From NCBI GenBank assembly GCA_035489615.1, contig DATHKA010000522.1:2420-66419 (forward strand): 64,000 nucleotides of DNA, written 5' to 3'. The position numbers and the translations under genes were made by a program. The notes beneath the pieces are model-generated. The model worked only from the letters and a program-made list of their open reading frames with translations, made no database searches and was not told the DNA's origin. The first letter of the stretch is position 1. Each line of letters begins with the position of its first letter. Source of the stretch: Chryseolinea sp. (lineage in GTDB: Bacteria; Bacteroidota; Bacteroidia; Cytophagales; Cyclobacteriaceae). Of this stretch, positions 9,756 to 27,022 are shown piece by piece.

Positions 9756-11114
9756 TCAGGGTCTGATGATCGTCCCATCGCGCTTGCGGACCTGCCAGTT
9801 TGATTTACTCGAAATCGGGTACTTAGCTGCCTCTTTTTCGTTGATGTCTACGCCCAGTCCCGGCACTTCATTAACTGACATGTAACCGTTGTTCATCGTC
9901 GGACATCCACTGAACACTTCGAGCATTTTGTCGGAGAAACTCACCGCCTCCTGAATACCGAAGTTCCAGACTGCAAGATCAATATGTGCGTGGGCGGCGT
10001 GGCCAACGGGCGAAACATCTCCAGGTCCGTGGAATGCCGTTCTGATATTGAACCATTCGCCCAGGCGCGCAATCTTCATGGCCGGCGTGATTCCGCCGAT
10101 CTGCGAAACGTGAACCCTGATGAAATCGAACCACTGGTTAACCATCGGCATTTTAAATTCGTTGATGTTGTTGAACAATTCACCCATCGCAATAGGCACT
10201 GAGGTACTTGCCCGCAGCTGCTTGAACCATTCCATATTTTCGGGCGAGAATGGATCCTCGACAAAGAATGGATGAAATTCATCCAGTTTCTTGATCATGT
10301 TGATGGCGTCCATCGGTTGTACGCGCTCGTGAATATCATGCAGCAATTCAATCTCATCACCGCATTGTTTGCGAACCATTTCAAACATTTTAGGCACGGA
10401 CTTCAAATACATCTGCTCATTCATGTAGTTGTCTGTTTCGTAGCCATATCCGGCTTTTTTGAAATCCGGCTGTTCATTGAGACTGCCCACTGCCCCATAG
10501 CCTCCCTGTTGAATGCGTATGTACTTGAATCCGCGTTCCATAATTTTTTTGACGTCTTCGGCAACCGCTTCCGGGGAGTTACCTCCTGCGTGTGTATAAC
10601 ACGGTACGGCAAAACGTGATTTGCCACCCAGTAATTGATACACTGGCATGTTCGCACGCTTGCCTTTAATATCCCACAGCGCCTCGTCCAGGCCGCTAAG
10701 CGCATTATTCAGAACAGGGCCGTTACGCCAGTACGAACTCACGTATGCGGAATTCCACATGTCTTCGATGTTGTCAACATCTTTGCCGACGCAGAATTCG
10801 TTGAGATACGTATTGACCGCTGTTACAACAGAAAACGCCCGCTGCGTAAATGTCGCACAACCCAATCCATAGAGGCCAGGCTCAGATGTCTCAACTTTCA
10901 CCACAATCAGGTTGGAACCCTGTGGCGCCGTGGCAATCGCCTTCACACTTTTTATCTTTACGGGCGGCAACCCTTTCGCATAGGCTGGCTTGCTGTCGCG
11001 CGCTTCTGCGTTTGTCCCGGAAATCAGACTCAATACGCCGGCAGCAGACGTCGCTCCAATTGTTTTCAGTAAGTCACGGCGACCAGCCATGAATCGATTG
11101 TCATTTTTATTCAT
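9756..11114 (-). CDS. Enolase-superfamily acid-sugar dehydratase (ManD/RspA subgroup) with Tat signal
   Basis: SYWRNGPV, LWDIKGK, LLHDIHER, EDP, GELFN and FHGPGDVSPVG motifs; N-terminal RRDLLK plus hydrophobic stretch and AEA cleavage site. Confidence 0.88.
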   Translation of the reverse strand: MNKNDNRFMAGRRDLLKTIGATSAAGVLSLISGTNAEARDSKPAYAKGLPPVKIKSVKAIATAPQGSNLIVVKVETSEPGLYGLGCATFTQRAFSVVTAVNTYLNEFCVGKDVDNIEDMWNSAYVSSYWRNGPVLNNALSGLDEALWDIKGKRANMPVYQLLGGKSRFAVPCYTHAGGNSPEAVAEDVKKIMERGFKYIRIQQGGYGAVGSLNEQPDFKKAGYGYETDNYMNEQMYLKSVPKMFEMVRKQCGDEIELLHDIHERVQPMDAINMIKKLDEFHPFFVEDPFSPENMEWFKQLRASTSVPIAMGELFNNINEFKMPMVNQWFDFIRVHVSQIGGITPAMKIARLGEWFNIRTAFHGPGDVSPVGHAAHAHIDLAVWNFGIQEAVSFSDKMLEVFSGCPTMNNGYMSVNEVPGLGVDINEKEAAKYPISSKSNWQVRKRDGTIIRP

Positions 11115-11234
11115 CGTTTCGTTCGTTTAGATTTAAAAGAAAGGCGCTGTCCATATTGACGTTGCTTGCGTAGTGAACATTTCAAGACGTACAGAGCCAT
11201 ATACATAATGGAAGTGCTTATTTAAACCAGAGGC

Positions 11235-12761
11235 TTATTCCACATCCCACCATACGCGGGTTTCCAGTGAGTTTCCACCCTGCCGCGAAATAGCTTCCTG
11301 TACGTTCGCCACGTTGATGCCGAGCTCGGTGTCCGGATACGTGAGCTTCCGAATGAAGTTGCCTGATATATCTTTACCTGGGTAAGGATTTGGATCGAGA
11401 GCCGGATATCCAGTCCGTCTGAAATTCGCGAACGCCTCCGGCCCGTTTAGAAATGATACTACCCAGTACTGCGTGTTGATATCGTCCATCGCGTTGCCAG
11501 GGTGCAAGGGATGGGCCGCTACGTAGGCATCGATGTCGGCTATAGCAACTGCCGACGACGTCGAGTAAGTTGTCATCTCCAGCATGTGGGCACGGATGGC
11601 TTGTTCATACAGCGCGGCCGCATCTCCCGTTGTCCAACCGCGAAACACAGCTTCTGCAAGGAGCAGTTTGGTTTGCGCGTGACTGACGAGATAACAGGGA
11701 GCGTCAATTTTGCCCATTCTGAACCGGTCCAATTGTGAATAATCGTAGAAACTGGCGAGGCCGTCGGCCGTTGCCCGTGCCACAATGGTGCCGTTGTCAT
11801 ATCCCATCGGCATACCAACCTGCACGGCCGGATCAAAATTAGCCGCTGCGGGTGTTTGCTGCGGGCCACTGGCTGCGCCTACGTAGCGAACAGCAATGGA
11901 CTTGAGTCGCGGATCATTGTTAGCTTTGAGGTAGTTAACAAATGGAGCGGCGAGATAATAGTTATTTGCTTCTGCGCTGTTCACAAAATTCCCAACGGCA
12001 TTGTTATACAAACTGGAATGACGAACCTGAGCACTGCCGAGATTGGATGAGATCACCCCGCCCGCTACTGCCTTGGCCACGTATGTTTTCGCTGTTTCCG
12101 CATCAACTTTTGATAGGCGCATGGCGGCACGCAGCATCAAAGAATATCCAAAGGATTTCCACAAAGCGACGTCTCCGGCATACAGCACATCCGTTGTTAC
12201 CGTAGGCTTTGCCGGATCAAGGGCCGCACATGCCTGTTCGAGTTCGCTGAGGATGTCTGCATAAATGGCCTGCTGCGCGTCGTACTTGGGTAACGATACG
12301 CCAGCGATGTAGCCTAGACCTGCTTCACTGTAGGGAATGTCACCATATGAATCAGTCAATATCATAGAACCAAATGCCCGGAGTATTCTCGCCGATTGAT
12401 ACAAGTTTGACATGGCGTCATCTTCGCGCGACGCGTTCATCACGTCAGCAAGCGATTTCATAACATCCCGGTAGTACCGGACCCAGTTGGCGCCGTTCCT
12501 CGGTTTGTTGTCCTGATTGAAATTTCCTCCGCCCAGTACACCGCCGAACGGTGTGACAATCTGCTGCACGATAGGCAATTCGAATACTATTATTTCAAGA
12601 GGGAAAGACGATAGAACGATTGCGTTATTCAGCAAGAACGCAGGATCCATTGTGGTGGGCGAAGTCTTGCTGATATTAAGTTCGTCAAAGCCATTGTCGC
12701 ACGCGGGCAACATGACAAGGGTCGTAAGGCAAATGAATAAATGTATGCTTGCTCGTTTCAT
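11235..12761 (-). CDS. susD: SusD/RagB-family outer-membrane lipoprotein
   Basis: Lipobox LPAC, LTDSYGDIPYSEA, EAFANFRRTGYP and RVWWD terminus; directly downstream of susC. Confidence 0.92.
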   Translation of the reverse strand: MKRASIHLFICLTTLVMLPACDNGFDELNISKTSPTTMDPAFLLNNAIVLSSFPLEIIVFELPIVQQIVTPFGGVLGGGNFNQDNKPRNGANWVRYYRDVMKSLADVMNASREDDAMSNLYQSARILRAFGSMILTDSYGDIPYSEAGLGYIAGVSLPKYDAQQAIYADILSELEQACAALDPAKPTVTTDVLYAGDVALWKSFGYSLMLRAAMRLSKVDAETAKTYVAKAVAGGVISSNLGSAQVRHSSLYNNAVGNFVNSAEANNYYLAAPFVNYLKANNDPRLKSIAVRYVGAASGPQQTPAAANFDPAVQVGMPMGYDNGTIVARATADGLASFYDYSQLDRFRMGKIDAPCYLVSHAQTKLLLAEAVFRGWTTGDAAALYEQAIRAHMLEMTTYSTSSAVAIADIDAYVAAHPLHPGNAMDDINTQYWVVSFLNGPEAFANFRRTGYPALDPNPYPGKDISGNFIRKLTYPDTELGINVANVQEAISRQGGNSLETRVWWDVE

Positions 12762-12784
12762 TTTAACTCCAGCGTCGCTGGTCA

Positions 12785-15700
12785 TTAGAATTTGACATTA
12801 AGATTAAATCCGATGCTTCTGCTTGTAGGCAGACCTGTACCTTCGAGGCCCACCTCGCGGTCCGAGACGTTGCCAAATTGTTCAGGGTCAATGTTTGGCA
12901 CCCATTTTTTAAGAATAGCCACGTTGTTGGCCACGGCGCTAACCTTTACTCCTTTGACGAAACTGCCGACTGGGAGGAACTTAGTAAAATCGTATCCAAG
13001 AGTAATTTGTCGCAACTTCCAGAAGCCGGCGTTGTAGGCGAATTCCTCGCGTATACCGCTCGTATTTACAGTCTCATAGTATGTTTGCAAGGGCGTTTGA
13101 ACCGCGTTTGTTTCTCCGTTTGGATTCACACCATCGCCCACAACGTATCCCTGTTCCCTGCCATTGAGCGTCTCCTTATGTAAGCCGTGGCGCCATAGGT
13201 TGAAATTGGTCGCCGAACCCAGGTAATGTCCGAGCTTGAAGTCTATCAGGAAGGAGAATGAAACGCCATAAACGTTTAATGAGTTGGTGATCCCTCCAAA
13301 GTAACGCGGTACCGCAGTGCCAACACGGATAGGGCTTGGTCCCCGGAGCGGACGGCCATTGTTGGGATCAAAAACTTGTCTGCCCTGGTCGTCGCGCAGA
13401 TAGGACGTCACGTAGAGTCCGCCCACCTGTTCGCCGACGACCTGTCGGATCGAGTTGTTGCCGGGATCGCCACCGACGACAATCTCATTTACGCCAGGGC
13501 CAAGGTTTAGGACTTCAGATGTATTGTAAGATCCATTGAAGCTTACATCCCAACGTACGTTGGATGACTGAACGGGTGTGCCTGTGACCAGCAGTTCAAT
13601 TCCATTGTTCTTACTCTCCCCGACATTGATGAGCTTGGCCGTGTATCCCGAACCGTCGGAGATTTGCGCGGCCAGGATTTGGTCGCGACTGATCTTGTTA
13701 TAGTACGTAAAGTCCAGGCCGACACGATTTTCGAAGAACTTCAACTCGAATCCAACTTCAGCTTCTGACACGCGCATGGGCTTCAGGTCCGGGTTAGGAA
13801 CGGTTGTGGTCGGAATAACACCGACAGGCTGTGCAGCGCCCAGTGGGTTATTAAACAAATTGTTGTTCACGCTGTAGTAAAGGCTATTGGCATACGGTGC
13901 CACATCAGCGTCGCTCCCCACTTCAGCGTAGCCAGCTCGTATTTTTCCGTATGACAACCACTCTGGCAAATTCTGGAACGCTTGAGTGAACACGAAGCTT
14001 CCGTTTACCGAGGGATAGAGAATGCTCCGGTTGGCGGGTGCTAAAGTAGAGAACCAGTCGTTTCTAGCCGTGACGTTGAGATACAGATACTCCTTGTAGG
14101 AAAATTCCGCGGCGCCATAAAGCGAGTTGATCTTTCTCTCCGAGAGGTCATAGAAGGGATCTTTTACGCGACCATTCATAACGGTATAGAGGTCGCGTAT
14201 AACAAAGTCCTGTACCAGTACTACGTTCTGGTCGTAGCGGGAATATCGCTGGTTGCCACCGAGCGTGATATCGACTGCAAAATCACCGAACTTGCGATTT
14301 GCGCCAATGAGAAAGTCAGTATTGAGTTCGCGGGAGCGGATGACTTCCTGGGTATAACGACCGTTGACAAATCCGGCCGGCGCAGCAGCGTTGGAAGCCC
14401 GCCCGGTCGGATCGTTGAAGTCATGATCGCGGGAGAAATAGTCTTGTCCGATTCGACCTTGTACGTACAGCCAATCCGTGAAATTGTATCGCGCCGTAAT
14501 ATTGCCAAATAGCCGGTCGCGCAACACGTTTTCGAAGCGGTCATACACCGATATGTAGGGATTGGTTCTGTTCCTGAACCGCGACCAAACAAATTCGTTG
14601 CCACTTGCATCGAAGCGTTTAGCACTCAGTAAGTCGAGGGGCATCGAATTAGACATCGTGTAGATCACCACCGGCGTGCTGATATCTTGTCCGCCAATGA
14701 CAACGGGATTCTTGTTATCCTCCCGTGAATAGGCAAGGTTGCCGGAGATGACAAGCTTCTTTCCCAGTTTCTGATTGAATCCGAGGTTGATCGTCTTGCG
14801 GTTGAAAACTGTATTTGGCTGGATACTCTTATTGTCCATGTTTGACAGCGAGAGATTGAGTCCTCCATTTTCGCCGGCCGTGGACATCGACACCGTGTTG
14901 GTCCAGGTGCTTCCCACGCGATAGAATTTCTTTATCCTGTCCCGTACCGCCTCGTAGGGAACCTCGACTCCATCGAACAACACTTGCGTCATTCCTGGCT
15001 GAAATTTTTCGCCGAAGCTCCAGACACCAGAGGTTGGATTAGGCGTCGTAGGGCGCACACCGAATTCACCCTGTCCGTACTCGTATTGAAAGTCAGTGAA
15101 ATCAAGCGGTGTATCTGACGTGTAGTTGCTGTTAAATTCAACACCGATTCCGCGTCCTTTTCCGGTCGACTTTGTCGTAATCATGATTACGCCATCTTTC
15201 GCGCGCGACCCGTAAAGGGCTGCAGCGGCGCCACCCTTAAGCACGGTCATCGACTCTATGTCGTCGGGATTAATGCTCGACAGTCCGTCTCCTCCGTCTG
15301 TTGTACCGGTGGCACCTCTTCCGGCAAAACTGCCACCCACGCCAAATGATGTGTTGTCTATAGGCACCCCGTTGACTACGATGAGGGGACTGTTCACGGA
15401 CCCAAAAGATGACTGGCCGCGAATGCGGATCTTGCTAGAGCCCGACGGGCCAGTACCCATGGGGGTAATGTTAACGCCCGCCATTTTCCCTTGCAGGCTG
15501 TTTACGAAGTTAGTGGTCCGGTTCTCCGTGATCTGATCCGGCGTCGCCGTACTGGTAGCGTAGCCCAGGCGTTTTGTCTCTTTCTTAATACCCAAGGCTG
15601 TCACGACGACTTCCTCTAAGGAATGTACTTCCGGTTCAAGAGCGACATCGATAACTGTGCGACCCGCCACAGCGACCTCAACCACTTTATAACCGACAAA

Positions 15701-16321
15701 AGAAAAAACTAATACCGCAGACTGTTCGTCGGCCGACAAGGTGTACTTTCCGTTGATGTCAGTGGTTGTCCCGGCCGTTGTGCCCTTCACGACAATGTTG
15801 ACACCAGGGAAAGTCAATCCATTTTCATCCTTCACGGTCCCCGAAATCGTTGCCAGAATAGGTACAACTAAAAGCTGTTCCCGCGAGGCTGTACCGGTCA
15901 AGGGATGAGCCATGTCCTCCGCTGTCTGAACCATTTCCGGTGGCATGGCCAGGGCTGAACTTTGTGGCGACCCGGAGGTGCTGGATGTCCGTCGATAGAT
16001 GACGAAGAAATTTTCTCCAGCCTTTTCGTAGTACAATCCTGTTCCGCTCAACAAACTGTCGAGCGCCTGCTCGGGCGCTGTGAACTTGCTGAGGTCAATC
16101 GTCGAAATCTTGTTCTCAATCCATTCATCCTTGTAGGCGATGGATATTTTGAATGATTTTTCCAGCGTCCGCAAAGCGTGGGTGAGCGGACTGACATCCT
16201 TTTGCTGATCGTGTAGTGGTTTCGCTGGACCTGTCAGTGAAGCATACATCGCCGCCTCCTGGGGCATCGCCCGCAGGAACATGAACAGCAACATGAGAAA
16301 TAGTAAGTAGCGCTTCTTCAT
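12785..16321 (-). CDS. susC: SusC/RagA TonB-dependent transporter with N-terminal signalling (STN-like) extension
   Basis: 1178 aa; LEEVVVTALGI TonB-box region, PLIVVNGVP, LKGGAAAALYGSRAKDGVIMITTK plug; C-terminal Phe. Confidence 0.95.
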   Translation of the reverse strand: MKKRYLLFLMLLFMFLRAMPQEAAMYASLTGPAKPLHDQQKDVSPLTHALRTLEKSFKISIAYKDEWIENKISTIDLSKFTAPEQALDSLLSGTGLYYEKAGENFFVIYRRTSSTSGSPQSSALAMPPEMVQTAEDMAHPLTGTASREQLLVVPILATISGTVKDENGLTFPGVNIVVKGTTAGTTTDINGKYTLSADEQSAVLVFSFVGYKVVEVAVAGRTVIDVALEPEVHSLEEVVVTALGIKKETKRLGYATSTATPDQITENRTTNFVNSLQGKMAGVNITPMGTGPSGSSKIRIRGQSSFGSVNSPLIVVNGVPIDNTSFGVGGSFAGRGATGTTDGGDGLSSINPDDIESMTVLKGGAAAALYGSRAKDGVIMITTKSTGKGRGIGVEFNSNYTSDTPLDFTDFQYEYGQGEFGVRPTTPNPTSGVWSFGEKFQPGMTQVLFDGVEVPYEAVRDRIKKFYRVGSTWTNTVSMSTAGENGGLNLSLSNMDNKSIQPNTVFNRKTINLGFNQKLGKKLVISGNLAYSREDNKNPVVIGGQDISTPVVIYTMSNSMPLDLLSAKRFDASGNEFVWSRFRNRTNPYISVYDRFENVLRDRLFGNITARYNFTDWLYVQGRIGQDYFSRDHDFNDPTGRASNAAAPAGFVNGRYTQEVIRSRELNTDFLIGANRKFGDFAVDITLGGNQRYSRYDQNVVLVQDFVIRDLYTVMNGRVKDPFYDLSERKINSLYGAAEFSYKEYLYLNVTARNDWFSTLAPANRSILYPSVNGSFVFTQAFQNLPEWLSYGKIRAGYAEVGSDADVAPYANSLYYSVNNNLFNNPLGAAQPVGVIPTTTVPNPDLKPMRVSEAEVGFELKFFENRVGLDFTYYNKISRDQILAAQISDGSGYTAKLINVGESKNNGIELLVTGTPVQSSNVRWDVSFNGSYNTSEVLNLGPGVNEIVVGGDPGNNSIRQVVGEQVGGLYVTSYLRDDQGRQVFDPNNGRPLRGPSPIRVGTAVPRYFGGITNSLNVYGVSFSFLIDFKLGHYLGSATNFNLWRHGLHKETLNGREQGYVVGDGVNPNGETNAVQTPLQTYYETVNTSGIREEFAYNAGFWKLRQITLGYDFTKFLPVGSFVKGVKVSAVANNVAILKKWVPNIDPEQFGNVSDREVGLEGTGLPTSRSIGFNLNVKF

Positions 16322-16368
16322 AGTTGACGTATTGTTGGTTTGACGTTTATTACTGTATTGGAATTCTA

Positions 16369-17367
16369 TTATTCCTGCATGAAAGCTTCAATTTTTACAT
16401 AGTTTCCGTTTCGCGTCATCTTCACACGATATGCCATCGCCAGCTGTTTTAATAAAGCGTCGGCGTTTCCGTGAGGCATAGATCCTGAGACTGTCTCTGC
16501 CAGCAGTTTGGTGTCGGGGATATCAACGGTAAGGCCATACGTATCGCGAAGCATCTGCACCATCTCAGCAAGGGAGGTATGATCGAGGATAATCTTGTTT
16601 GTCGTCCAGGCGGTATAGAGCAACGGATTGACATCCCGCTTGCTGTAGCGTTTCGCCTTGTACTCCACCATTTCGCCGGGCTTCATGGTAATGGCTTCAG
16701 CGGACTGCTCAACCGGTATGTTCATTCTGATCTGGCCCGTGTTCAAGACAACTTTCGTTTCCTCCACACGATTGTAGACATTGAACGTCGTGCCCAGCAC
16801 CTCGACGCGCACACCCTGTGCAGCGTGGACGACGAACCGTTGATCATTTTTTTTGTGCTGAACATCGAAGTAAGCTTCCCCCTCTATCCAAAGATCACGA
16901 GGTTTTGTAGTGTCCCACGGCGACTTTAATGTCAGCGTAGAATTAGCATTCAACACGACCGAGGATCCATCTGGCAGGGTGATTCGCCGCGTCTCGCCAT
17001 AGGGGACAGAATATTCTTTCCAGGGTTTGTTCCATTGCGTGAGGACAAATGTGGACAGCAACAGTATCGTTGCCGCTGCGGCTACGGCCGCGTATATGAC
17101 GGCACGCTTGCGTCCCGGTTCGACCAGGGATTCAGTCTGCCCGATGCGCGTCCAAAGCGCGGTTACCTCGCCGGGCGAAAGACTATGACGTTCAAATTGA
17201 AGCGCCCCCAGTAAACGTTTTGCTTCCTGTACTTCTATGATTTTTTCCGGGTGTTCTTTCATCCAAAGCTGCCAGAAACGCTCTGTTCCTTCGTCCGGAT
17301 GAAATACCCAATTTTGGAAATACTCGTCTTTTATAAAATCGCGAACTGAATAGTCACTATACTTCAT
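16369..17367 (-). CDS. FecR-family anti-sigma factor
   Basis: Single TM; LPDGS.V.LNANS.L, GEAYFDV and VLGTTFNV motifs. Confidence 0.92.
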   Translation of the reverse strand: MKYSDYSVRDFIKDEYFQNWVFHPDEGTERFWQLWMKEHPEKIIEVQEAKRLLGALQFERHSLSPGEVTALWTRIGQTESLVEPGRKRAVIYAAVAAAATILLLSTFVLTQWNKPWKEYSVPYGETRRITLPDGSSVVLNANSTLTLKSPWDTTKPRDLWIEGEAYFDVQHKKNDQRFVVHAAQGVRVEVLGTTFNVYNRVEETKVVLNTGQIRMNIPVEQSAEAITMKPGEMVEYKAKRYSKRDVNPLLYTAWTTNKIILDHTSLAEMVQMLRDTYGLTVDIPDTKLLAETVSGSMPHGNADALLKQLAMAYRVKMTRNGNYVKIEAFMQE

Positions 17368-17465
17368 GCAGCCCTAAGAGGCATGCAGGCACCCGATCTC
17401 ATCAGTTATTTTAAATTATTTTTTTAGTGAACCGAACACCCACAGAGGTTCGCGTCAAAAAGCCA

Positions 17466-18092
17466 CTACTTGCCCATGGAACGGCGGAGATTACTCAGGG
17501 CCTTGCTGATGATGTTGTAGATAGAATCAACGTGAAGATCCATCACCAACGCAATTTCTGCGTAAGTAAGATCATTGTAAAACTTGAGAAAAATTGCTTC
17601 GCGCTGCCGGCGAGTTAGAGATTTGATAGCGGAGCCAAGTTTCAGAAGGACCAATTCAGCCTGTTCAACGCTTACGATCGTACTTTCAATAGGCGGCACG
17701 ACGTCAAATTCAGCGGCCGGTGAAAGTTTCATCATGAACCGGCGACGCCACGTGACCCTTTTGATCAGAAGCCTGCGAAAAGACATGATCAGATAGGCAT
17801 TGACAGAGTGAATTACATCGAGTTGCTGACGACGAGTCCACAATGTTGCAAACAATTCCTGCATACAATCCAGAACGAGGTCATGATCATGGCACAAATG
17901 AATGCCGAAATTATAGAGTTTCTGCACGTACTTTTTATACAGTACAGAGAATGCCAATGCATTGTCTTTCGTGACGTTCTCCCAGAGGTGTTCATCATCC
18001 AATTCTGCATTCTTATCCCCTGACCATTTTCCGGATTGCGGGTTAAGTGGGGGTTCCGGGTCGAATAGCATGAGGGATAGGTAAACTTGCAA
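17466..18092 (-). CDS. ECF sigma-70 factor (FecI-like)
   Basis: Region 2 (AFSVLYKKY..LYNFG...QELF..LW) and region 4 (LT.RQREAIFLKFYNDLTYAEIA); upstream of fecR-susC. True start may be slightly downstream. Confidence 0.9.
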   Translation of the reverse strand: MQVYLSLMLFDPEPPLNPQSGKWSGDKNAELDDEHLWENVTKDNALAFSVLYKKYVQKLYNFGIHLCHDHDLVLDCMQELFATLWTRRQQLDVIHSVNAYLIMSFRRLLIKRVTWRRRFMMKLSPAAEFDVVPPIESTIVSVEQAELVLLKLGSAIKSLTRRQREAIFLKFYNDLTYAEIALVMDLHVDSIYNIISKALSNLRRSMGK

Positions 18093-18475
18093 TCGAATTA
18101 ACCGAAAACGTTTGAAGTGTGCAAATTTTCGCGTTTTGCTCCCTTTTTCGGGCGTTGTGTGCGGTCACATCCAATCAGCCTGATCAAGCTAAAAGGCATT
18201 TTCCTTTAACTCCAGGGTTAAGGCGTGGGGTGTTTTTACAGCTGCCCCGTCGATTATCCCGACCGGTATACTGCCGTTATGTTGCACAGAAAATACGGTT
18301 CATTGTCCGATACGAGGGCGTCTTTTTTTTCCGATACCCAGAACGAACAGCAGGGTCAAGCCGCACCGTTCGAAGTGAAGCCTTGGTGGATATTCACGAA
18401 AGAATAACGTTTGGTTTGCTGCATGATATTTTCCACTTTCCTCCCACCAACAACCACACCCTACTGGTCCATATC

Positions 18476-19282
18476 ATGAGTGTACTAAAGAAATTAAGAG
18501 ACGGCAAGCGCGTGTACGGAACGGCCTTTACAGCCACGGCACCTTCCTGGCCGCTGAGCTTACAGAAAGCAGGACTTGATTTTGCGTTTATAGACAACGA
18601 GCATATTTCGATGAACAGGGCCGACCTGGCTAAATTATGTCAGGTGATAAAATCCTATGGAATTTCTCCAATTGTCCGGATTCCGAGTCCCGATCCGTAT
18701 CTCGCGTCTCAGGCAATTGATGCGGGTGCCGTGGGAGTGGTGGCACCCTATCTCGAGTCAGTTGACCAGATCCGCGACCTGGTCGGCGCGGTGAAATACA
18801 AACCGCTAAAAGGAGAGGTGCTCGATCAAGTATTGAAAGGTGAAGAAACGTTGAATGAGAAAACGCAAGCATACGTGGAAAGGCTTAACGCCGGAAATAT
18901 GGCGATTGCCAATATTGAAAGTGTTCCTGCCATCAACAAACTTGATGAGCTGTTATCCGTGCCTGGTCTGGATGCCGTTTTTATCGGCCCGCATGATCTT
19001 TCCGTAAGCCTTGGTCATCCGGAGGAATATGACCACCCTGTATTTGAAGCGGCTGTAAAGAAAATCATACAAACCGCCCGTGGTAAGGGACTGGCAATTG
19101 GAATCCACTTTTCTCTTGAACCCGAACGTCAGATCAAGTGGGTGAAGGAAGGAGCGAACATCATTGTTCACAGCTTTGACATTGCGCTCTTTACGCAACG
19201 ACTGATTCATGATATGAACATTATTAAGGCAGGAGTGGGCGACCAGGTTTCCGCTAAGCAATCGGACGACATGATTATTTAG
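18476..19282 (+). CDS. HpcH/HpaI-family class II aldolase (2-keto-3-deoxy-sugar-acid aldolase)
   Basis: DFAFIDNEH, VRIP, D.GA.GVVAP, NIES and FIGPHDLS motifs. Start moved to ATG 18476 because the upstream ORF extension is not homologous. Confidence 0.88.
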   Translation: MSVLKKLRDGKRVYGTAFTATAPSWPLSLQKAGLDFAFIDNEHISMNRADLAKLCQVIKSYGISPIVRIPSPDPYLASQAIDAGAVGVVAPYLESVDQIRDLVGAVKYKPLKGEVLDQVLKGEETLNEKTQAYVERLNAGNMAIANIESVPAINKLDELLSVPGLDAVFIGPHDLSVSLGHPEEYDHPVFEAAVKKIIQTARGKGLAIGIHFSLEPERQIKWVKEGANIIVHSFDIALFTQRLIHDMNIIKAGVGDQVSAKQSDDMII

Positions 19283-19314
19283 GAATAACGTAATAGTAGA
19301 AACTTTCGCAAGCT

Positions 19315-21747
19315 TTACTTTTTCTGTATCCATATCTCGCCGACCTGTGCGCCCTGTTCACCTTCCGGACAGACAAATGTGAAGATCACGTCTCCGGTTG
19401 ACAAGGCGGCTTTGGGAATATCAAAGGAATAAATGGGTTGGTCGCCTGTCAGGAAGTAATCGTGCACGAGATATCCGTTCGCCGTTAACTTGATACGGGA
19501 ACGCAGCCTTCCCGTGTAGGCGATCCGGATACTATAAGAACTTTTTGCGTCGAGATTTTTATAGTGAATACTCAGTGGCGTGTCGTACAAAGTTCCGGTC
19601 TGCGTCATCCATGCTTTGGGTACGATTTGCCCGCTAAAGCCCCTCGGTAAGACTTCGTGTACCCATTCATCCTCTTTTGTTCCAACGCCAAAGTTTACCA
19701 GGGGTGACTGAAGACCACCTGGATCTTTCAACCAGCCAGGTCCCGGCACAACGTACGGTCTGGCCGCCGGCGTACCGAAATTTGTGTAGATGCCTCCGTC
19801 ACCTGGGTCTGCACGATGTAGCAACGCATGTATTGTTTCAAATGCTTCGTCTTCATTCCTGAGTGCTGCTATTTTTCGTAGTTGATCCGTGAGCCAGGGT
19901 GCGTCATTCAAAGGCACGTCGATGTTGTCGATAAAATTTCCCCGGCCTTCAGCTGCGCCGTGTTTTTTGATAGTCAATTGTGCACCAATACTTTTGAACA
20001 AAGAGTCTGCCAGCACCAGGCATTTAGCTTTGTATGAATCATATTGTGCTGGATCATTTGCCTTCATAAGTACACGTCCTGCTTTGACCAGAGCAACTAC
20101 CGATCCTGTTTGCCTGGCTTGCGACAATGCGCGGTAGGCTTCCTGCTCCAGTTTTGTTTCGCGGATCAATCTCTCTTGGACGAAGGCATCATAGTACGCA
20201 CGAAGCAAACACATCTGAAAGCGGAAGTTCTGCATCATTGGAACAGACGCTTGTTTTTCGAGTGACTGGAAATGCTTCAGCGTCTTGCCCACTTGTTTGT
20301 TGGACAATAATGGTCCGCGTAGATTTTCTTCCAGCTCAAGGATACCTGCTGCAATGGATTTTGCATGATCGGGGCCGATGAAGAACCTGGCATAGTCCTG
20401 AAGAGTTTCTTCCACAGTGATGTGTGGATCCCAATCCTGATCGCTCCATATGAATTTATTGACGTCGTCGTTGGTGCCTTCAGAATAGCTGATGCTTCCC
20501 GTTCCATACCTGGCAAATAGGTTGTGAATGTGTTTTTCATCCGTTGGCCGGGGATTGATGCATTCGCGCCCCAGCGTCATGGCATAGGCAAGGTCCCAAT
20601 CCGGTACAGGGTATTGCGAGCTTAGGCTATGCGTTATGTCGGGATACATTCGAATGGGAATGGAGGCATCAATCAGCATGCGCATGGAATCAACGGGCGT
20701 TTTTATCCAGGGACCGAAAACAACCCCACCAAGCCAGACGTATTTCCGATTCACATGATCGTAAAAAGCGTTCATCCACTTTCTGGTTGGGCGAAAAACC
20801 TGTGGAGACACCCAGATTTTTGCGGTCGGATGGTATTTTTTCAACACTGCTGCTTGCTTCTCCAGCCAGGTAAACAATGCATCTGGCTGCAGTTCGCCCG
20901 GATCTCCACCGGGAACAAACACGGCATCTAACTTTTCCAACGCTGCAAAAACAGTTTCACGTTCATGCAACTCATCCTGTAGTGTTTTTTCGTCGGCGTA
21001 GTCAGTTCCCATGTTCGGATACCACATCCAAACGTCGAGTCCGTAGGATTTGCAGATCCTGGATTGTTCGGCCATCATTTTCATCGGTGCCAGTTTCATG
21101 TGCGCGCTGGTGGCGTCATCATCGGTACGAGGCGGCACAATCTCGATGCTGTTCGTACCAAACAACGCAAGTTCCCGTATGTAGAGATCAAATTGCGCAA
21201 CACTGAAAGCATCATACGAATTTGTTTTTGGTCGATATCCAAGCTGATGGCCGCGGACCGGATACACCGGTGACGATGAAATCGTCGTCGACACAGGCAC
21301 GGAAAAGTTGCCGGCCCGCAGGTCTGCTTTCCGGAGCAATCTTCCGATACCATATAGGATACTTCTTGCATCGTCTCCCGTAATCACGACCGTTTTGGCC
21401 TCAGGCTGCATGAGCAATTTAAATCCATCTTTGCCTGTTGGTGCCATGCGATCGAGGGCTGCCCGTAGGAACGAGGGTAGTATGCTTAGCTCCTCCGTTG
21501 TCGCGAGGATCACTCGTGGCTGTGCTGGAACAGGTGTGGCTTTAAGATCGTGGTTTATCGTTAGGATAATTCCCGTTCGTTTATAAACTTCTTCCTGTAA
21601 AACGGTGATCGGTTTTTGAATGGCTTGCTCTCCCCCGGGCGTTACAAAAATGGAAGCCTGCGAGAAGTTAATGGACTGAGCCAGGCTCACAAACGCGACG
21701 GAAATACCCAACAAGGTCATCGCAAAGCGTTTTATGTCGTGAATCAT
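19315..21747 (-). CDS. Secreted ~810-aa protein of unknown function with GH20/GH67-type N-terminal domain (paralogue A)
   Basis: Signal peptide; ITGDDARSILYGIGRLLR N-domain motif; core motifs shared with paralogue B. Confidence 0.8.
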   Translation of the reverse strand: MIHDIKRFAMTLLGISVAFVSLAQSINFSQASIFVTPGGEQAIQKPITVLQEEVYKRTGIILTINHDLKATPVPAQPRVILATTEELSILPSFLRAALDRMAPTGKDGFKLLMQPEAKTVVITGDDARSILYGIGRLLRKADLRAGNFSVPVSTTISSSPVYPVRGHQLGYRPKTNSYDAFSVAQFDLYIRELALFGTNSIEIVPPRTDDDATSAHMKLAPMKMMAEQSRICKSYGLDVWMWYPNMGTDYADEKTLQDELHERETVFAALEKLDAVFVPGGDPGELQPDALFTWLEKQAAVLKKYHPTAKIWVSPQVFRPTRKWMNAFYDHVNRKYVWLGGVVFGPWIKTPVDSMRMLIDASIPIRMYPDITHSLSSQYPVPDWDLAYAMTLGRECINPRPTDEKHIHNLFARYGTGSISYSEGTNDDVNKFIWSDQDWDPHITVEETLQDYARFFIGPDHAKSIAAGILELEENLRGPLLSNKQVGKTLKHFQSLEKQASVPMMQNFRFQMCLLRAYYDAFVQERLIRETKLEQEAYRALSQARQTGSVVALVKAGRVLMKANDPAQYDSYKAKCLVLADSLFKSIGAQLTIKKHGAAEGRGNFIDNIDVPLNDAPWLTDQLRKIAALRNEDEAFETIHALLHRADPGDGGIYTNFGTPAARPYVVPGPGWLKDPGGLQSPLVNFGVGTKEDEWVHEVLPRGFSGQIVPKAWMTQTGTLYDTPLSIHYKNLDAKSSYSIRIAYTGRLRSRIKLTANGYLVHDYFLTGDQPIYSFDIPKAALSTGDVIFTFVCPEGEQGAQVGEIWIQKK

Positions 21748-21874
21748 AGTGGTTGGCCTTTCAAAAACACGTGAATTGAATACTTAGATGCGCGAAATGC
21801 GGTAAGCAGGCGTGGTCATTCTTTTTACCTTACCCGGATGGCAATCATCACTTCCAATAAAAATTAAGGTACTC

Positions 21875-24256
21875 ATGAACATAACGAGATTCAAAATTTT
21901 ATTGCCGGCAACACTGGCTGCTTTATTGACTTCCCTGATTTTTGATTTGTCTGCCCAGGCAATAACCTTGCAGCACGTTACTATTTTTCAGGAAAAAATT
22001 TCATTGGGCAACGGGGAAATTGCCGCGGCGGAAATGTTGAGCGAGGAAGTTGCCAAACGAACGGGAGCAAAATGGCCCGTATCGGTCACGTGGCCTGCTT
22101 CCGGCGATGTGATCGTGCTGAAAAAAGCTGCCGCAAAAACAAAGCTGCCGTTTTCAATTCCCGCTGCGCCCCGGCTGGCAAAGAAGAGCGAGTCGTATCG
22201 CCTTGTAAATGTTCAGCATCAGGGCCAAAGGGTGATCATCATAGAGGGTGTTGATGATCGTGGCGTTCTCTTTGGAACAGGCTACCTGCTCAGAACCATG
22301 CAGTATACCGGAAACAGCGTTGGCCTTGATCAGCTTCCGTCCGTAGCCAGCAGCCCGGATAAATTTATGCGCGGCCATCAATTAGGCTTCCGCAATACAG
22401 CTAATTCATGGGATGCCTGGACCAAGCAGGAATTTGAACAGTACATACGCGACCTGGTGGTATTCGGAACCAACAGCATCGAATCGATCCCGATTTTTGA
22501 TGAAAGCGTAAGCCCTCATTTTAAGGTTCAGCCAGCTGAAATGAATGCGTTCATCAGTACGATATGCCAGAAATATTCGCTGGATTACTGGATGTGGATT
22601 CCCGCGCAATTTGACTTAAAAGATATGGCCCTTCGGAGCAAGTACCTCAGCACCTTTGAGGAGATATGCAAGCAATCGGTTCGCATCAACGGTGTGTTTT
22701 TCCCAGGCGGTGACCCCGGTGACAATCCTCCTGAATTGGTTATACCACTTTTGCAGGATTTGGCCGTCATTCTAAAGAAGTATCACCCGCAAGCAAGTAC
22801 CTGGGTATCCTTACAAGGTTTTACGCCCGCACAAAGCCAGTATGTGTATAAATACATCCAGGATAAAATGCCGGCCTGGTTAGGCGGCTTGATCACCGGC
22901 CCCAGCAGCCCGACCGTTGAAGAAACAAGAGCTGTATTGCCTGCCAGGTACAAATTGCGTCACTATCCTGATCTTACCCACAACGTGCGATGTGAATTCG
23001 AAATTCCGTGGTGGGATCCTTCGTTCAGCTTAACCCTGGGAAGAGAGGCGATCAATCCCAGACCGTACCATTACTCGGCCATATACCATGCCCTTGATCC
23101 CTACATTGACGGATTCATCTCGTATTCAGATGGTGTGCATGACGACGTTAATAAAATCATCTGGACGGCCCTGGCGTGGGACCGGAAAGCAGACGAACGC
23201 AAAATCCTGCAGGAGTACAGTAACTATTTTTTCGGGAGCGCTGTTGCCGAAGAGGCAGCAGACGGCATTCTGGCATTAGAGAAAAACTGGCAAGGCCCCA
23301 TCGTTTCCAACGGTGGCATCGCTACGACACTTACCGCGTGGAAAGCGCTTGAAAAAGAAAATCCATCGCTGGATAATAACTGGCGTTGGCAAATGAATCT
23401 TCTGAGGGCTTATTATGATGCGTATACCCGGGCCCGTTACATCTATGAGACACAATTGGAACAGCAAGTGAATGAAAAGTTATTGGAGGCAGCGTCGATC
23501 GGTGCCGATGCAGCAATGAAAGAGGCCAACACCATTCTGGCAAAAGCGGAAACACAACCGGTCATGACGGAAGTCCATACGCACATCATTGATTTATGTG
23601 AAGCACTTTACAAGTCGGTTAGCCTGCAAACCAGCGTAAAAAAGTACCAGGCGTCTGGTCTCGAGAGGGGTGCTGTACTGGATTTTCTGGATCGGCCCTT
23701 GAATAATCGCTGGTGGCTGGAAGATGAATTCAAAAAAATACAAGCCCTCCCTGAAGACGATAAAGTTATGGCACTCGAGGTTATTGCGAATTGGGAAAAA
23801 GCAGGTCAGGGCAGCTATTATGATGAAGTCGGAAATGTTGGTAAATCTGTTCATGAAATGAAAGGTGAAGATTGGAGGATGGATCCCATCCTGCGAAAGA
23901 ATTTTAACCCGGGTTACGATTTTTCAGATAACGGCCTTAGTCGTAAAAGGCTTTCGTGGCTCACGTATATGCGATGGCCCATAGCCATGGAGTACGACAA
24001 CATCGATACGGCTGCGCGCTATACGGTAAAGATCAACGGGATGGGTGAATGTCTTCTGAAGATAAACGGACAGCGTGTAGCGCCCAGTCGTTATGGCAGA
24101 GCCTATGGAGAGATAAAGGAGTTTCCCGTTCCGCAGGCATTGGTGGAGCAAGGCAAGCTGGTGTTGACATGGGACGATATCAATGAAGATTTCCTCAACT
24201 GGCGGAAGCAATCCAGGGTTACGGAGGTATGGCTGGTGAAAGATACAGGACATTAG
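21875..24256 (+). CDS. Secreted ~790-aa protein of unknown function with GH20/GH67-type N-terminal domain (paralogue B)
   Basis: Signal peptide; IEGVDDRGVLFGTGYLLR; shares GHQLG.R..NS.DA, FGTNSIE, PGGDPG, YPD.TH and LGRE.INPRP with paralogue A. Confidence 0.8.
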   Translation: MNITRFKILLPATLAALLTSLIFDLSAQAITLQHVTIFQEKISLGNGEIAAAEMLSEEVAKRTGAKWPVSVTWPASGDVIVLKKAAAKTKLPFSIPAAPRLAKKSESYRLVNVQHQGQRVIIIEGVDDRGVLFGTGYLLRTMQYTGNSVGLDQLPSVASSPDKFMRGHQLGFRNTANSWDAWTKQEFEQYIRDLVVFGTNSIESIPIFDESVSPHFKVQPAEMNAFISTICQKYSLDYWMWIPAQFDLKDMALRSKYLSTFEEICKQSVRINGVFFPGGDPGDNPPELVIPLLQDLAVILKKYHPQASTWVSLQGFTPAQSQYVYKYIQDKMPAWLGGLITGPSSPTVEETRAVLPARYKLRHYPDLTHNVRCEFEIPWWDPSFSLTLGREAINPRPYHYSAIYHALDPYIDGFISYSDGVHDDVNKIIWTALAWDRKADERKILQEYSNYFFGSAVAEEAADGILALEKNWQGPIVSNGGIATTLTAWKALEKENPSLDNNWRWQMNLLRAYYDAYTRARYIYETQLEQQVNEKLLEAASIGADAAMKEANTILAKAETQPVMTEVHTHIIDLCEALYKSVSLQTSVKKYQASGLERGAVLDFLDRPLNNRWWLEDEFKKIQALPEDDKVMALEVIANWEKAGQGSYYDEVGNVGKSVHEMKGEDWRMDPILRKNFNPGYDFSDNGLSRKRLSWLTYMRWPIAMEYDNIDTAARYTVKINGMGECLLKINGQRVAPSRYGRAYGEIKEFPVPQALVEQGKLVLTWDDINEDFLNWRKQSRVTEVWLVKDTGH

Positions 24257-24360
24257 GGATGGCCTAAGAGCAATCGAATTGGGACACATATTGTCGATTA
24301 TCTAATCATTTATCGGAGGTTTGATGATTTGAGAGGTCAGGCCAACTTGAAAAACTCGCA

Positions 24361-27022
24361 TCAGTCAATCTTCAGACTCTGCGAAGGATTTTTCTTCACT
24401 ACGCGCCAGGTTTGTATGCCGACTGATAGCAGTGCAAATGCCAACGCGAGTACCAGCGGGACGATCAGATTGCTTACGCTGATCTGTATACGCAAGGCAA
24501 ATGTTTGAAGCCACTGCTCAATTGCCCACCACGTCAATGGCAAAGCGATAGCTCCGGCTATCACCACCATCAGTAAATATTCCCCGGTCAGTAAATGCAT
24601 GAGATGTTTCGCAGGTGCGCCAAGTACCTTTCGAATGCTCATTTCTTTCGCACGCTGGTTTAAAGAGAAGAGCGATAGCGCGAACCAATCCCAGGCACGA
24701 AATAGCAATGGCAAGTGCGCAAAAGAATTGGAATACGTTTTTTAATTGCCGTTCGCCAGTGTAAAGGCTTTCATAATGATCTGCGAGCATGAAATAGTCG
24801 AAGGCATTCTCGGGAAAGAACTTATCCCACTCGCTCTGTATGGCAAGAACGGTCGTTTTAAGATTGTCACCCATGGCCTGGGGCGATAGTTGAATGGACA
24901 AGAGTGATCCGTCATTGGCGGTATAGATTGCCGGACCAAGAGGTTTTTTCATTGAACGCTGATAGTAGTCATCGATCACGCCAACAATGCGACACGCATT
25001 TCCGTCCCAATGCATCACGGTCCCAATTGCGTCGTCGGGCCTCATAAAACCAAGTCGAACCGTACCGGTTTTATTGAGAATTATGGGCTCCACCTTGTTA
25101 AAGAATTTTTCGACCGGGTAATCCGCCGCCACAAAGTTCCGGCCAGCCAGCAATTTGAGTCCATAACCATCGATAAAGCCAGGATCAATGATATTTACAT
25201 AAAATACCTGTCGCTCGTCATTTTTTTCGCGACTCACACCGGCTGTCCAGCCTTCTGACGTTTCAAAGATTAACCCTGACGTAAATACTTTTTCGGCAAC
25301 CGAATGATTCTGCAAAGATGAACGCAGTTGGGTGAGACGTGTCCGGAATGATGAATCGGCGTTGGATGGACTCAGCACAACCAGTGTTCTTTTATAGTCA
25401 ATACCTGTATCCTTTTCGTTCATGACTCCAAATTGCCGGTTTAAAGCAATCACCGCCATCAGCAAAGCTATGGTACAGGCGAACTGAAACACTACCGACG
25501 AACGGCGAAACATTCCACGGCTCTTCATAAAAGTAAATTTTCCTTTGAGTACGCTTACGGTGGGAATCGATGCCATCACTCGTGCGGGCAGAAATCCAGA
25601 GATGAACATACCAGCAAAGAAAAGCCCTGTTATGATCCAGCCAGTCAAGCCCAGATCCGACCAGTAGATTTTATTCCAGGGGAATGTGATCCCGACATAC
25701 TCATAGAACCACGGCGCAATGACCGCTACCATTCCAACGCCGATGGCCATGCTGATTGCATTATACACCAAGGTCTCACTCAGGAACTGATGCGCAATCT
25801 GTCGGTACGTTGCGCCGGCAGTTTTTCTCACGCCTACTTCTTTGGCTCTGGCGAAAGAACGCGAAATTGAAAGATTGACATAATTGATCCAGGCCAGCGC
25901 TAGAACAACAAAGGCAATGAACAACAGGAAAACGATGCGATTGGGATCGGATGCGTCGTTAAGCTGATTTTCCGCTATCGAGTACAGGTGAATATCGGCT
26001 ACAGGTTCAAGGAAGATATCGTATTTCGTATTTTCCGGGGCCGGATATTTTGCAGCAAAGGAAGTCATCTTTGCCTGCACATCGTTCAGCAGAGTAAACT
26101 CATTTAGCAAGATGTAGGCAAAGCTGTCGAACGATTTACGATACTGGTTCTGATCGGTGGATGCGAAGGAAAGCAGAATATCATTTCGGTAATGCGAGTT
26201 CATTGGTTGATCTTCCATGACGGCCGAAACGGTATAATCATGCACATCACTGCTTCCGCGAAAATGCAATACTTTACCAATGGGGTCCTCGTCGCCGAAG
26301 TATTTAGTTGCTGTGGATTGGGAGATCACCACTGTGAATGGCGATCGGAGCGCATCTTTCGCATTGCCCGACTTAATCCTTATATCGAACATGTCTAAAG
26401 CCCCGTGCGTGGCATAGGCAACGTTCCTTTCATTAAACGTTCGGCTGATGCTGCCTTCATGGTAGGTGAACGAACAAGTGAACCACCATGCCGTTGTGGC
26501 AAATTGAGCAGACGCTTCAATGCCGGTCACGTTTCGCCGGATTTCCGACAACGCATCTACCGGTAGCGTTGCACTTTCGCTTCGAAGAATACCCTTTTCG
26601 TAAGTCCGCAGATTGACCCGGTAAATGTTGGATGCTTTGGGATAATACCTATCGAAGCTAAGTTCAAAGCTTGCATACTGAAATATTAGCAGGCATGCCG
26701 CGATGCTGCTAGATAGCGCGAAGATGGTGATGAAAGAGAATACTTTATTTTTCTGCATGTGTCGCATGGCCGTTGCCAGGTGATTCTGAAACAGAATCGC
26801 TTCGCGACGCGTTGTCATAATGTTGTTACGAAGAATGATTCCCGGCCGGAAAAACATAAGGGTTCGTAGGAACAACCGCAGGATGGACCTGGATCGGCCA
26901 TAGTGGTTGCGGTCTTGAAGGAACTTCTGCGTCAGGTCGCCTTCGATTTCTTCTGCAAGATGCGCGGGACAAAACAAGTTAAGCATGTGGAATATCCATC
27001 GGGGAGGAGATGACAAGCTCAT
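24361..27022 (-). pseudogene. ABC permease with N-terminal prefix domain, frameshifted by +1 near 24685
   Basis: Coding strand reads TGC CTG GGA TTG G TTC GCG CTA; removing one G gives CLGLFALSLFSLNQRAKEMSIRKVLGA and a continuous 886-aa product. Confidence 0.85.

Follow-up and report, generated by a model that had tools for sequence, protein, structure and literature searches.

Two divergently transcribed paralogous genes, here named A and B, encode proteins that are highly likely to be glycoside hydrolases (GHs) of an uncharacterised family, judging from fold, residue conservation and genomic context. The genes lie in a 64,000-nucleotide stretch of DNA from Chryseolinea sp. (Bacteroidota; NCBI GenBank assembly GCA_035489615.1, contig DATHKA010000522.1, positions 2,420 to 66,419 of the forward strand), hereafter the window, whose numbering is used throughout. 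The family is coupled to an aldolase of the HpcH/HpaI type, a gene for which also adjoins A. The explanation that we favour, with evenly divided confidence, is that A and B are periplasmic glycosidases that release an acidic sugar, which the partner aldolase then cleaves. The genes concerned are as follows.

18500 to 19282, plus strand: HpcH/HpaI-family class II pyruvate aldolase, 260 aa (Pfam HpcH_HpaI, E = 8.8e-25).
19315 to 21720, minus strand: paralogue A, 801 aa from M10; secreted putative glycoside hydrolase of the A-type clade.
21721 to 21874, no strand: divergent intergenic region between A and B, 127-154 bp.
21875 to 24256, plus strand: paralogue B, 793 aa from MNITRF; same family, B-type clade.

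Alignment of A with B revealed 33% identity over the full length (BLASTP, E = 7e-131), which is far beyond chance and establishes the two as true paralogues. They are the sole copies of the family in their own genome. The longest open reading frame (ORF) of A spans 19315 to 21747 on the minus strand (810 aa, with an alternative ATG at 21747), and that of B spans 21812 to 24256 on the plus strand. A probably starts at M10 (nt 21720), yielding 801 aa, the same form as the called protein P0001; B starts most plausibly at MNITRF (nt 21875), yielding 793 aa. The gap between the genes is 127 bp when measured from 21747 to 21875 and 154 bp with the start of A at M10. The intergenic region at 21721 to 21874 presumably holds the promoters of both genes; a scan of positions 18000-24700 for sigma-70 consensus promoters and terminators yielded nothing above the shuffled background.

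Using a hydrophobicity heuristic, signal-peptide-like segments were found at the N-termini of both proteins, ending in AQ-S in A and AQ-A in B. Cleavable signal peptides, and thereby secretion to the periplasm, are predicted for both. An earlier annotation based on the DNA letters, hereafter the sequence-only reading, had described a divergent pair of paralogues about 127 bp apart, each with a signal peptide, and had placed A next to an aldolase gene. The located ORFs, the BLASTP alignment, the heuristic and the position of the aldolase gene, which is convergent with A and ends 32 bp from its stop, agree with this description. The core motifs FGTNSIE, PGGDPG, YPD[IL]TH, LGRE.INPRP, ISYS[ED]G[TV][NH]DDVNK and LLRAYYDA are common to A and B, as had been reported. 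Two further motifs needed correction: G.D.RG.L[YF]G.G.LLR is present in the N-domain, but A reads RS instead of RG (GDDARSILYGIGRLLR), and RGHQLG[YF]R..NS[YW]DA is present, but with a spacer of three residues instead of two.

The libraries compared were Pfam (2025), NCBIfam (June 2026) and the PDB (2026), with CAZy and dbCAN outside the comparison; in these, no entry covers the catalytic domain of the family. In Pfam, A matched only GH67N, below threshold (E = 1.2e-4; 22.7 bits versus a gathering cut-off of 24.3), and B had no match. The GH67M, GH67C, GH20, GH84 and DUF4838 models were unmatched by the family, and Glyco_hydro_115 gave nothing at E ≤ 1. Searches of NCBIfam with A and B returned noise only: the model for GH138 alpha-galacturonidase (NF049878) scored 11.2 bits against an equivalog cut-off of 1300, in the N-domain only. 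Single-sequence searches of PDB chains with A and B returned no match. A profile of 67 family sequences matched the Geobacillus GH67 enzyme AguA (E = 2.8e-11, profile positions 21-241), in an alignment that runs through the N-domain into the barrel and stops after about strand 3. The profile also matched the N-domains of GH84 and GH20 enzymes, the matches ranging, with that of GH67, from 2.8e-11 down to 1e-2. Even with the profile, no sequence match to GH115 was obtained in the PDB.

By these matches, the N-domain is of the GH67N/GH20b type, which is common to several GH families and therefore defines no single one. Members of the family are named 'hypothetical protein' or 'alpha-glucuronidase family' in their sources, the latter label apparently taken from the N-domain. 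A full-text literature search found no paper on the family. We considered and rejected a relationship of the barrel to DUF4838 (GH163/GH185): when the family profile was compared by hhalign with six DUF4838 proteins from neighbouring genes, the N-domain alone aligned (columns 29-139, probability 94.6), and Pfam DUF4838 was unmatched. The sequence-only reading had recognised no known GH or polysaccharide lyase signature, and the weak N-domain match was indeed all that Pfam, NCBIfam and the PDB gave. A and B thus probably represent, relative to the libraries compared, a new GH family within the superfold that joins a GH20b-type N-domain to a TIM barrel, with an unusual aldolase partnership.

The PDB contains no solved structure of the family. 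An AlphaFold2 model of A, based on the family alignment, had a mean predicted local distance difference test score (pLDDT) of 94.8 and a predicted template modelling score of 0.94. The model comprises four domains.

21286 to 21675, minus strand: N-terminal alpha/beta domain of A, GH20b/GH67N type, residues ~16-145 (model, Pfam and profile matches).
20425 to 21273, minus strand: (beta/alpha)8 barrel of A, residues ~150-432 (DSSP of the model).
19801 to 20415, minus strand: helical-bundle domain of A, residues ~436-640, with invariant R500 and the LLRAYYDA motif.
19318 to 19791, minus strand: C-terminal beta-sandwich of A, residues ~644-801, with invariant Y729.

In a Foldseek search of the PDB, the top matches of this model were all glycoside hydrolases, GH115 being followed by GH84, GH20 and GH67, at 8-15% identity. 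The best match was the GH115 enzyme SdeAgu115A (4zmh; E = 3.9e-19, TMq 0.49, 11% identity); for GH67, the structural alignment had 15% identity. Sialidases of GH156 and GH33 were absent among the top 50 matches.

Conservation was scored over 67 family members that are 27-84% identical to A. Ten positions were invariant (67/67): P151, R156, G188, D361, H364, R385, Y412, D419, R500 and Y729. Eight of these are polar or aromatic, and those in the barrel are located at strand ends. Specifically, the strand ends carry R156 (β1), N190 and E193 (β2), D273 (β4), Q307 (β5), W338 (β6), D361 and H364 (β7), and Y412, D418 and D419 (β8), with R385 in the β7-β8 loop. D273, in the GGDPG motif of strand 4, and D418 were each conserved in 65 of the 67 sequences. 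A and B share all of the invariant positions as well as D273 and D418. They differ at neighbouring positions, the changes from A to B being E414D, T416V, N417H, loss of W338, Q369E and P371E. The EGTN and DGVH variants of A and B, whose difference may set specificity according to the sequence-only reading, both recur across the family (E/D, 51/14; N/H, 40/14).

The active site probably lies at the C-terminal face of the barrel, as the conserved residues are at the strand ends, where TIM-barrel glycosidases bind substrate. The model thus agrees with the barrel fold and the conserved acidic residues at C-terminal strand ends that had been proposed from sequence, and the acidic pair of DDVNK proved to be conserved (65/67 and 67/67). 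The proposal that the glutamate of NSIE acts as a catalytic acid fared less well: E193 occurs in only 57 of the 67 sequences and is otherwise Q, S or G. Better candidates for catalytic residues would be D273, D361/H364 and Y412/D418/D419. In addition, the invariant arginines R156, R385 and R500 may hold an anionic group of the sugar. The catalytic carboxylate pair of GH20 and GH84 enzymes is positioned after barrel strand 4. In A, the end of this strand reads P-G-G-D273-P-G, a lone aspartate flanked by glycine and proline, and the D-E or D-D pair is absent.

The partner aldolase belongs to Pfam HpcH_HpaI (87.7 bits versus a gathering cut-off of 25). It matched the NCBIfam models for YfaU, HpaI and GarL at about 1e-30 and ~100 bits, compared to equivalog cut-offs of 370-440 bits. 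Being below every NCBIfam equivalog cut-off, it represents a distinct subfamily and a member of unassigned specificity. The closest PDB entry was YfaU (2vws, E = 5e-28), a 2-keto-3-deoxy sugar aldolase. By eye, the positions of HpaI that we take to be metal-binding or catalytic (IDNEH, VRIP, NIES, FIGPHDLS) look intact. The aldolase has no signal peptide and is predicted from its sequence to be cytoplasmic. The mechanically called ORF spans 18119-19282 on the plus strand (387 aa) and includes a low-complexity 5' extension; homologues start at MSVLKKL, around nt 18500, and the extension is probably untranslated.

To describe the genomic context of the family, we used 80 genome loci with A-type orthologues of at least 49% identity, obtained in a scan with 13 closer sequences, and 80 B-type loci from a scan of metagenome contigs with a B-type alignment, many of these contigs being short. 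For the related loci, ORFs were taken from a simple calling script, and their labels from BLAST against exemplars with Pfam annotation. Both sets include related genomes, with about a dozen from Dyadobacter, such that raw counts overstate independence. An HpcH aldolase gene was present in 44 of the 80 A-type loci. Less than 300 bp separated it from the family gene in 40; both genes shared a strand in 37, and the aldolase gene was the upstream one in 14 and the downstream one in 26. This adjacency, with either gene order, occurs in more than 20 genera belonging to at least three phyla; the linked loci belong to Bacteroidota, Planctomycetota (L081, L082, L084, L086) and KSB1 (L061). Other aldolases also recur: an RraA-like aldolase in five A-type loci, and a DHDPS-like aldolase together with an SSF symporter in six, some of these loci also having HpcH. 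More distant members include one of 36% identity in an overlapping DHDPS-FAM-AXE1 esterase operon, where FAM denotes the A/B family gene, and one of 32% identity that is followed by a BNR_2 gene of sialidase fold. In the B-type loci, HpcH was found in 11 of 80, DHDPS in four and RraA in one. One B-type locus (L138) repeats the window's ECF/FecR/SusC/SusD arrangement, except that SSF and DHDPS stand where the window has ManD and HpcH.

The association also held at the level of whole genomes. Among 401 evenly sampled Bacteroidota genomes, the aldolase subfamily of the window (≥47% identity, E ≤ 1e-76) occurred in exactly five, all of which carry the family, and in none of the 395 genomes lacking it. 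In the sixth family-bearing genome, an HpcH protein of 29% identity is encoded directly next to the family gene. Adjacency alone does not account for the association, since several of these genomes carry the two genes on different contigs or at a distance of tens of kilobases. The co-occurrence with HpcH that had been anticipated was thus found in 44 of the 80 A-type loci and, by subfamily, in five of the six family genomes. The other predicted partnerships did not generalise. A ManD-type dehydratase as a conserved partner was rejected, as it occurred in none of the 80 A-type loci and in one of the 80 B-type loci, where it is distant; similarly, SusC and SusD were found in only 13 and nine of the A-type loci, respectively.

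The most frequent other neighbours in the A-type loci were NagX/HGSNAT (19 loci), GH20 (18), MFS (17), an AraC-type regulator (16) and a ROK kinase (15), counts that come mostly from one Cytophagales cluster. In this cluster, observed at L015 (8879-13270, plus strand) and in about a dozen Dyadobacter loci (among them L018, L029 and L030), NagX/HGSNAT, the family gene and HpcH form an operon with gaps of ~15 bp, which is divergent from a GH20-ROK-MFS-AraC cluster. Further neighbours were DUF3748 (14 loci), DUF4838 (10) and a BT_1020-like (GH143-type) propeller with a sialidase-like carbohydrate-binding module (8). GH92, GH109-like, Metallophos and 2-hydroxyacid dehydrogenase genes also recur, the last of these accompanying both the family gene and HpcH in loci from Flavobacteriaceae and in L195; a Pirellulales locus contains GH38, GH123 and an esterase.

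A second protein family, U746 (~746 aa, secreted or lipoprotein-like), recurrently adjoins the A/B family and DUF3748. It is represented by L023:1810-4050 (minus strand) and 26 further copies, occurring in 20 of the 80 A-type loci and in eight B-type metagenome loci. U746 had no sequence match in Pfam, NCBIfam or the PDB. Its AlphaFold model (pLDDT 84.5) consists of an N-terminal beta-propeller, resembling the sensor propellers of hybrid two-component systems (HTCS), and a large all-helical C-terminal domain; among the matches listed, the propeller alone had a fold match and the helical domain had none. U746 was rejected as a distant member of the A/B family in view of an hhalign probability of 0.1 and the propeller-plus-helical model. 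A 708-aa Spirosoma neighbour was likewise rejected as a paralogue, being an unrelated membrane protein.

At 90% identity, the family as a whole amounts to more than 7,000 clusters; at 50% identity (E ≤ 1e-3), it has 1,956 representatives. It is nonetheless rare in individual genomes, occurring in six of 31 close relatives and in six of the 401 Bacteroidota genomes. Orthologues were found in Cytophagales, Chitinophagales, Flavobacteriales and Bacteroidales, and also in Planctomycetota, KSB1 and Calditrichota metagenome-assembled genomes; B-type orthologues in other genomes and metagenomes had 44-93% identity. In a FastTree phylogeny, A and B were placed in separate deep clades among several others (support of the B clade, 100). 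The duplication is therefore old, the two clades being well supported. The head-to-head A/B arrangement with the aldolase recurs in a congener (G014) and in L092, and in Chitinophagales a B-type gene, an A-type gene and HpcH occur in tandem.

About one-third of the family members have no signal peptide according to the heuristic. At L196 (8001-12778, plus strand), two such paralogues, 49% identical to each other, are encoded in tandem. The neighbours of the cytoplasmic members (L196 and L195) include a CUT1-type ABC importer, an MFS transporter, an IclR regulator, DUF386 (YhcH-like) and an iron-containing alcohol dehydrogenase. The tandem pair points to a variant of the pathway in which import comes first and cleavage takes place inside the cell.

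In the pathway that we favour, A and B would clip an acidic sugar off a microbial or host-type glycoconjugate. The sugar would be, or would readily become, a 4-hydroxy-2-oxo acid of the 3-deoxy-2-ulosonic acid type, such as 3-deoxy-D-manno-octulosonic acid (Kdo), 3-deoxy-D-glycero-D-galacto-non-2-ulosonic acid (Kdn), 3-deoxy-D-lyxo-hept-2-ulosaric acid (Dha) or a relative of sialic acid. It would then be imported and split by the aldolase into pyruvate and an aldose or aldehyde. In the Chryseolinea genome, the A/B pair would have been recruited into an ECF-sigma/SusCD locus containing a Tat-exported ManD-type dehydratase. A 4-hydroxy-2-oxo acid is the simplest product to suppose because three structurally unrelated types of aldolase recur in the loci and one subfamily is phyletically locked to the family. 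A 3-deoxy-2-ulosonic acid, moreover, needs only import and one aldolase step, which fits the minimal HpcH-FAM modules in Planctomycetota. It also fits the sialic-type accessory genes, namely DHDPS, SSF, esterases, DUF386, ROK, BNR and the BT_1020-like propellers. Overall, the neighbours consistent with breakdown of ulosonic acids or glycoconjugates are BT_1020-like, BNR_2, DUF386, esterases, GH20, DUF4838, GH92, GH123, GH38 and GH109-like. There is a precedent for the fold: GH156 is a sialidase with a (beta/alpha)8 barrel (bioRxiv 10.1101/2022.06.28.497753). A more specific version, that a barrel-fold 'ulosonidase' and a dedicated HpcH aldolase form an undescribed two-step module that catabolises a 3-deoxy-2-ulosonic acid, be it Kdo, Kdn, Dha or a nonulosonic acid of bacteria, is tentative and somewhat doubtful.

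Several observations weigh against a glycosidase that releases an ulosonic acid. To our knowledge, all known hydrolases of Kdo, Dha and Kdn, and most sialidases, are beta-propellers, and the neighbouring propellers (BT_1020-like, BNR_2) could release the ulosonic acid instead. About half of the A-type loci have no aldolase gene within 10 kb. The dehydratase of the window would be superfluous if the product were already a 2-keto-3-deoxy acid, which suggests that the sugar acid here may need to be dehydrated first. Finally, the nearest folds are those of alpha-glucuronidases and beta-N-acetylhexosaminidases, not ketosidases. The first of these folds leads to an unlikely alternative, in which A and B are uronidases, functional analogues of GH67 and GH115 that free glucuronic acid, galacturonic acid or a methylated uronic acid; an isomerase or dehydrogenase and a ManD-type dehydratase would follow, and the HpcH aldolase would act last, like GarL or 2-keto-3-deoxygluconate aldolase. 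A GH115 alpha-glucuronidase is the best structural match, a GH67 alpha-glucuronidase is the sole significant sequence-profile match reaching into the barrel, and the invariant arginines could bind a C6 carboxylate. The window locus combines a ManD-family dehydratase with an HpcH aldolase, and the 2-hydroxyacid dehydrogenase of the Flavobacteriaceae loci and L195, where HpcH and the family gene are also present, would suit such a route. However, ManD is missing from all 80 A-type loci and is distant in its single B-type case, and the recurrent neighbours include no isomerase or dehydrogenase of uronate and no glucarate dehydratase. They are of N-acetylhexosamine, mannose and sialidase type rather than xylan or pectin enzymes, and the GH67M, GH67C and GH115 catalytic-domain models were unmatched.

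The Cytophagales family gene located in a NagX/GH20/ROK/MFS amino-sugar cluster, a further point against release of an ulosonic acid, relates to the second of the nearest folds. The corresponding alternative, which we regard as distinctly improbable, is an N-acetylhexosaminidase-like enzyme with substrate-assisted catalysis, as in GH20, GH84 and GH185, that acts after periplasmic N-acetylation by NagX and leaves the aldolase in a separate downstream branch. The membrane acetyltransferase NagX/HGSNAT is encoded directly upstream in 18-19 of the 80 loci, with the tight NagX-FAM-HpcH operon in Dyadobacter and with GH20, the ROK kinase and MFS in the same clusters. GH84 and GH20 are close structural neighbours, and GH185 (DUF4838) has similar fold neighbours and a single catalytic aspartate (PMC10570127). 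Nevertheless, the end of strand 4 has the lone D273 of GGDPG instead of a D-E or D-D pair, the barrel did not align with the DUF4838 or the Pfam GH20 and GH84 models, and the NagX link is limited to a few Cytophagales genera, whereas the aldolase link spans phyla. Least probable, and in our view very remote, is that the proteins are not hydrolases at all but lyases or phosphorylases, carbohydrate-binding or scaffold proteins, or pseudoenzymes, with the aldolase link reflecting shared regulation only. The lack of a recognised canonical GH signature and the variability of E193, the acidic residue of the sequence-only reading, are consistent with this. Against it stand the ten positions invariant over 67 sequences, those of the barrel being at strand ends, the top fold matches, all of which are active exo-glycosidases, and the retention of the family in catabolic loci of several phyla in secreted and cytoplasmic forms.

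If the more specific version, with a barrel-fold 'ulosonidase', is correct, the module would be a non-orthologous replacement for the classical pair of beta-propeller sialidase and class I NanA lyase. It would enable soil and marine Bacteroidota, Planctomycetota and others to scavenge the acidic sugars of lipopolysaccharide cores, capsules, algal walls or glycoconjugates, and it would supply a long-missing gene for a Kdo- or Kdn-type aldolase. Confirmation of the activity would found a new GH family of ~2,000 clusters at 50% identity, spread over several phyla and including secreted and cytoplasmic forms. It would also improve the annotation of thousands of genes now called 'hypothetical' or 'alpha-glucuronidase family'. 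The reciprocal link to the aldolase provides an entry to a sugar, and probably a glycan, whose microbial turnover is unaccounted for, and the same loci point to further partners in the U746 family and DUF3748.

In the window, the remainder of the locus consists of the backbone of a polysaccharide utilization locus (PUL) at 9756 to 18092 on the minus strand, identified from Pfam, NCBIfam and a twin-arginine translocation (Tat) motif. All of its genes are on the minus strand.

9756 to 11114, minus strand: ManD-family dehydratase (enolase superfamily) with a Tat signal (Pfam, NCBIfam, Tat motif).
11235 to 12785, minus strand: SusD (Pfam, NCBIfam).
12785 to 16321, minus strand: SusC with an STN domain (Pfam, NCBIfam).
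16369 to 17367, minus strand: FecR anti-sigma factor (Pfam, NCBIfam).
17466 to 18092, minus strand: extracytoplasmic function (ECF) sigma factor (Pfam, NCBIfam).

This ECF-sigma/SusCD/ManD context belongs specifically to the local lineage, and its association with the A/B family is not conserved. The ManD-family dehydratase has a 50-residue N-terminal extension with a twin-arginine signal (MAGRRDLLKTIGATSAAGVLSLISGTNAEA), on the basis of which Tat export to the periplasm is predicted. ManD-type dehydratases are a cytoplasmic enzyme family, for which Tat export is unusual. Downstream of B, a MacB/FtsX-like permease gene at 24361-27022 (minus strand) has a frameshift near nt 24,700, its C-terminus (...QRAKEMSIRKVLGAP...KKNPSQSLKID) being in another frame at 24361-24741. 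The gene is either a pseudogene or the result of an assembly error. Permease paralogues of the MacB_PCD/FtsX type, ~800 aa in length, occur at 305-2782, 7286-9709, 24518-27022 and possibly 42036-47337.

Of the known systems, the GH115 alpha-glucuronidases (SdeAgu115A, 4zmh; BoAgu115A, 4c90) resemble A and B in the order of their domains: N-terminal alpha/beta domain, TIM barrel, helical bundle and C-terminal beta-sandwich. The domain layout of A and B is closest to that of GH115 and corresponds in part to those of GH84, GH20 and GH67. The GH115 enzymes are also similar in size (800-950 aa), in being secreted, in belonging to Bacteroidota PULs and in having as substrate an acidic sugar, which for A and B is the proposed one. 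They differ in sequence, with 11% identity and no match of A or B to the Glyco_hydro_115 model, and the A/B context has no xylan-type genes. The motif set RGHQLG, GGDPG, YPDITH and SYSEGxNDDVNK is specific to the A/B family as compared to GH115. GH67 (Geobacillus AguA, 1k9d/1l8n) is the only solved family that the A/B profile reaches beyond the N-domain; the rest of its barrel and its C-terminal domain were unmatched, and it has no C-terminal beta-sandwich. The typical genomic partners of GH67 enzymes are xylan-utilisation genes.

GH84, GH20 and GH163-GH185 (DUF4838) share with A and B the GH20b-type N-domain and a fold of barrel plus helical bundle, and GH20 and DUF4838 genes are frequent neighbours of the A/B family. 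Unlike A and B, GH20 and GH84 enzymes have the catalytic D-E or D-D pair on strand 4. The closest relevant paper concerns GH185/DUF4838, a different family with similar fold neighbours (PMC10570127).

By analogy, the A/B system may be likened to modules of a sialidase (GH33 or GH156) and N-acetylneuraminate lyase (NanA), which also pair a secreted exo-glycosidase with a cytoplasmic pyruvate aldolase. Some members of the A/B family are located with genes like those of NanA modules: a DHDPS/NanA-like aldolase, an SSF symporter, an esterase, a ROK kinase and a DUF386/YhcH-like protein. However, the usual partner of A/B is the class II, metal-dependent HpcH aldolase, while that of the sialidase module is the class I enzyme NanA. 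The general library scans, in which no GH33 or GH156 model was compared, revealed no sequence relationship of A and B to these families. Finally, the aldolase itself has the same fold as Escherichia coli YfaU/RhmA, GarL and HpaI and belongs to the same family, the HpcH-family 2-keto-3-deoxy acid aldolases. Unlike these enzymes of rhamnonate, glucarate and aromatic-acid pathways, its distribution tracks that of the A/B family.

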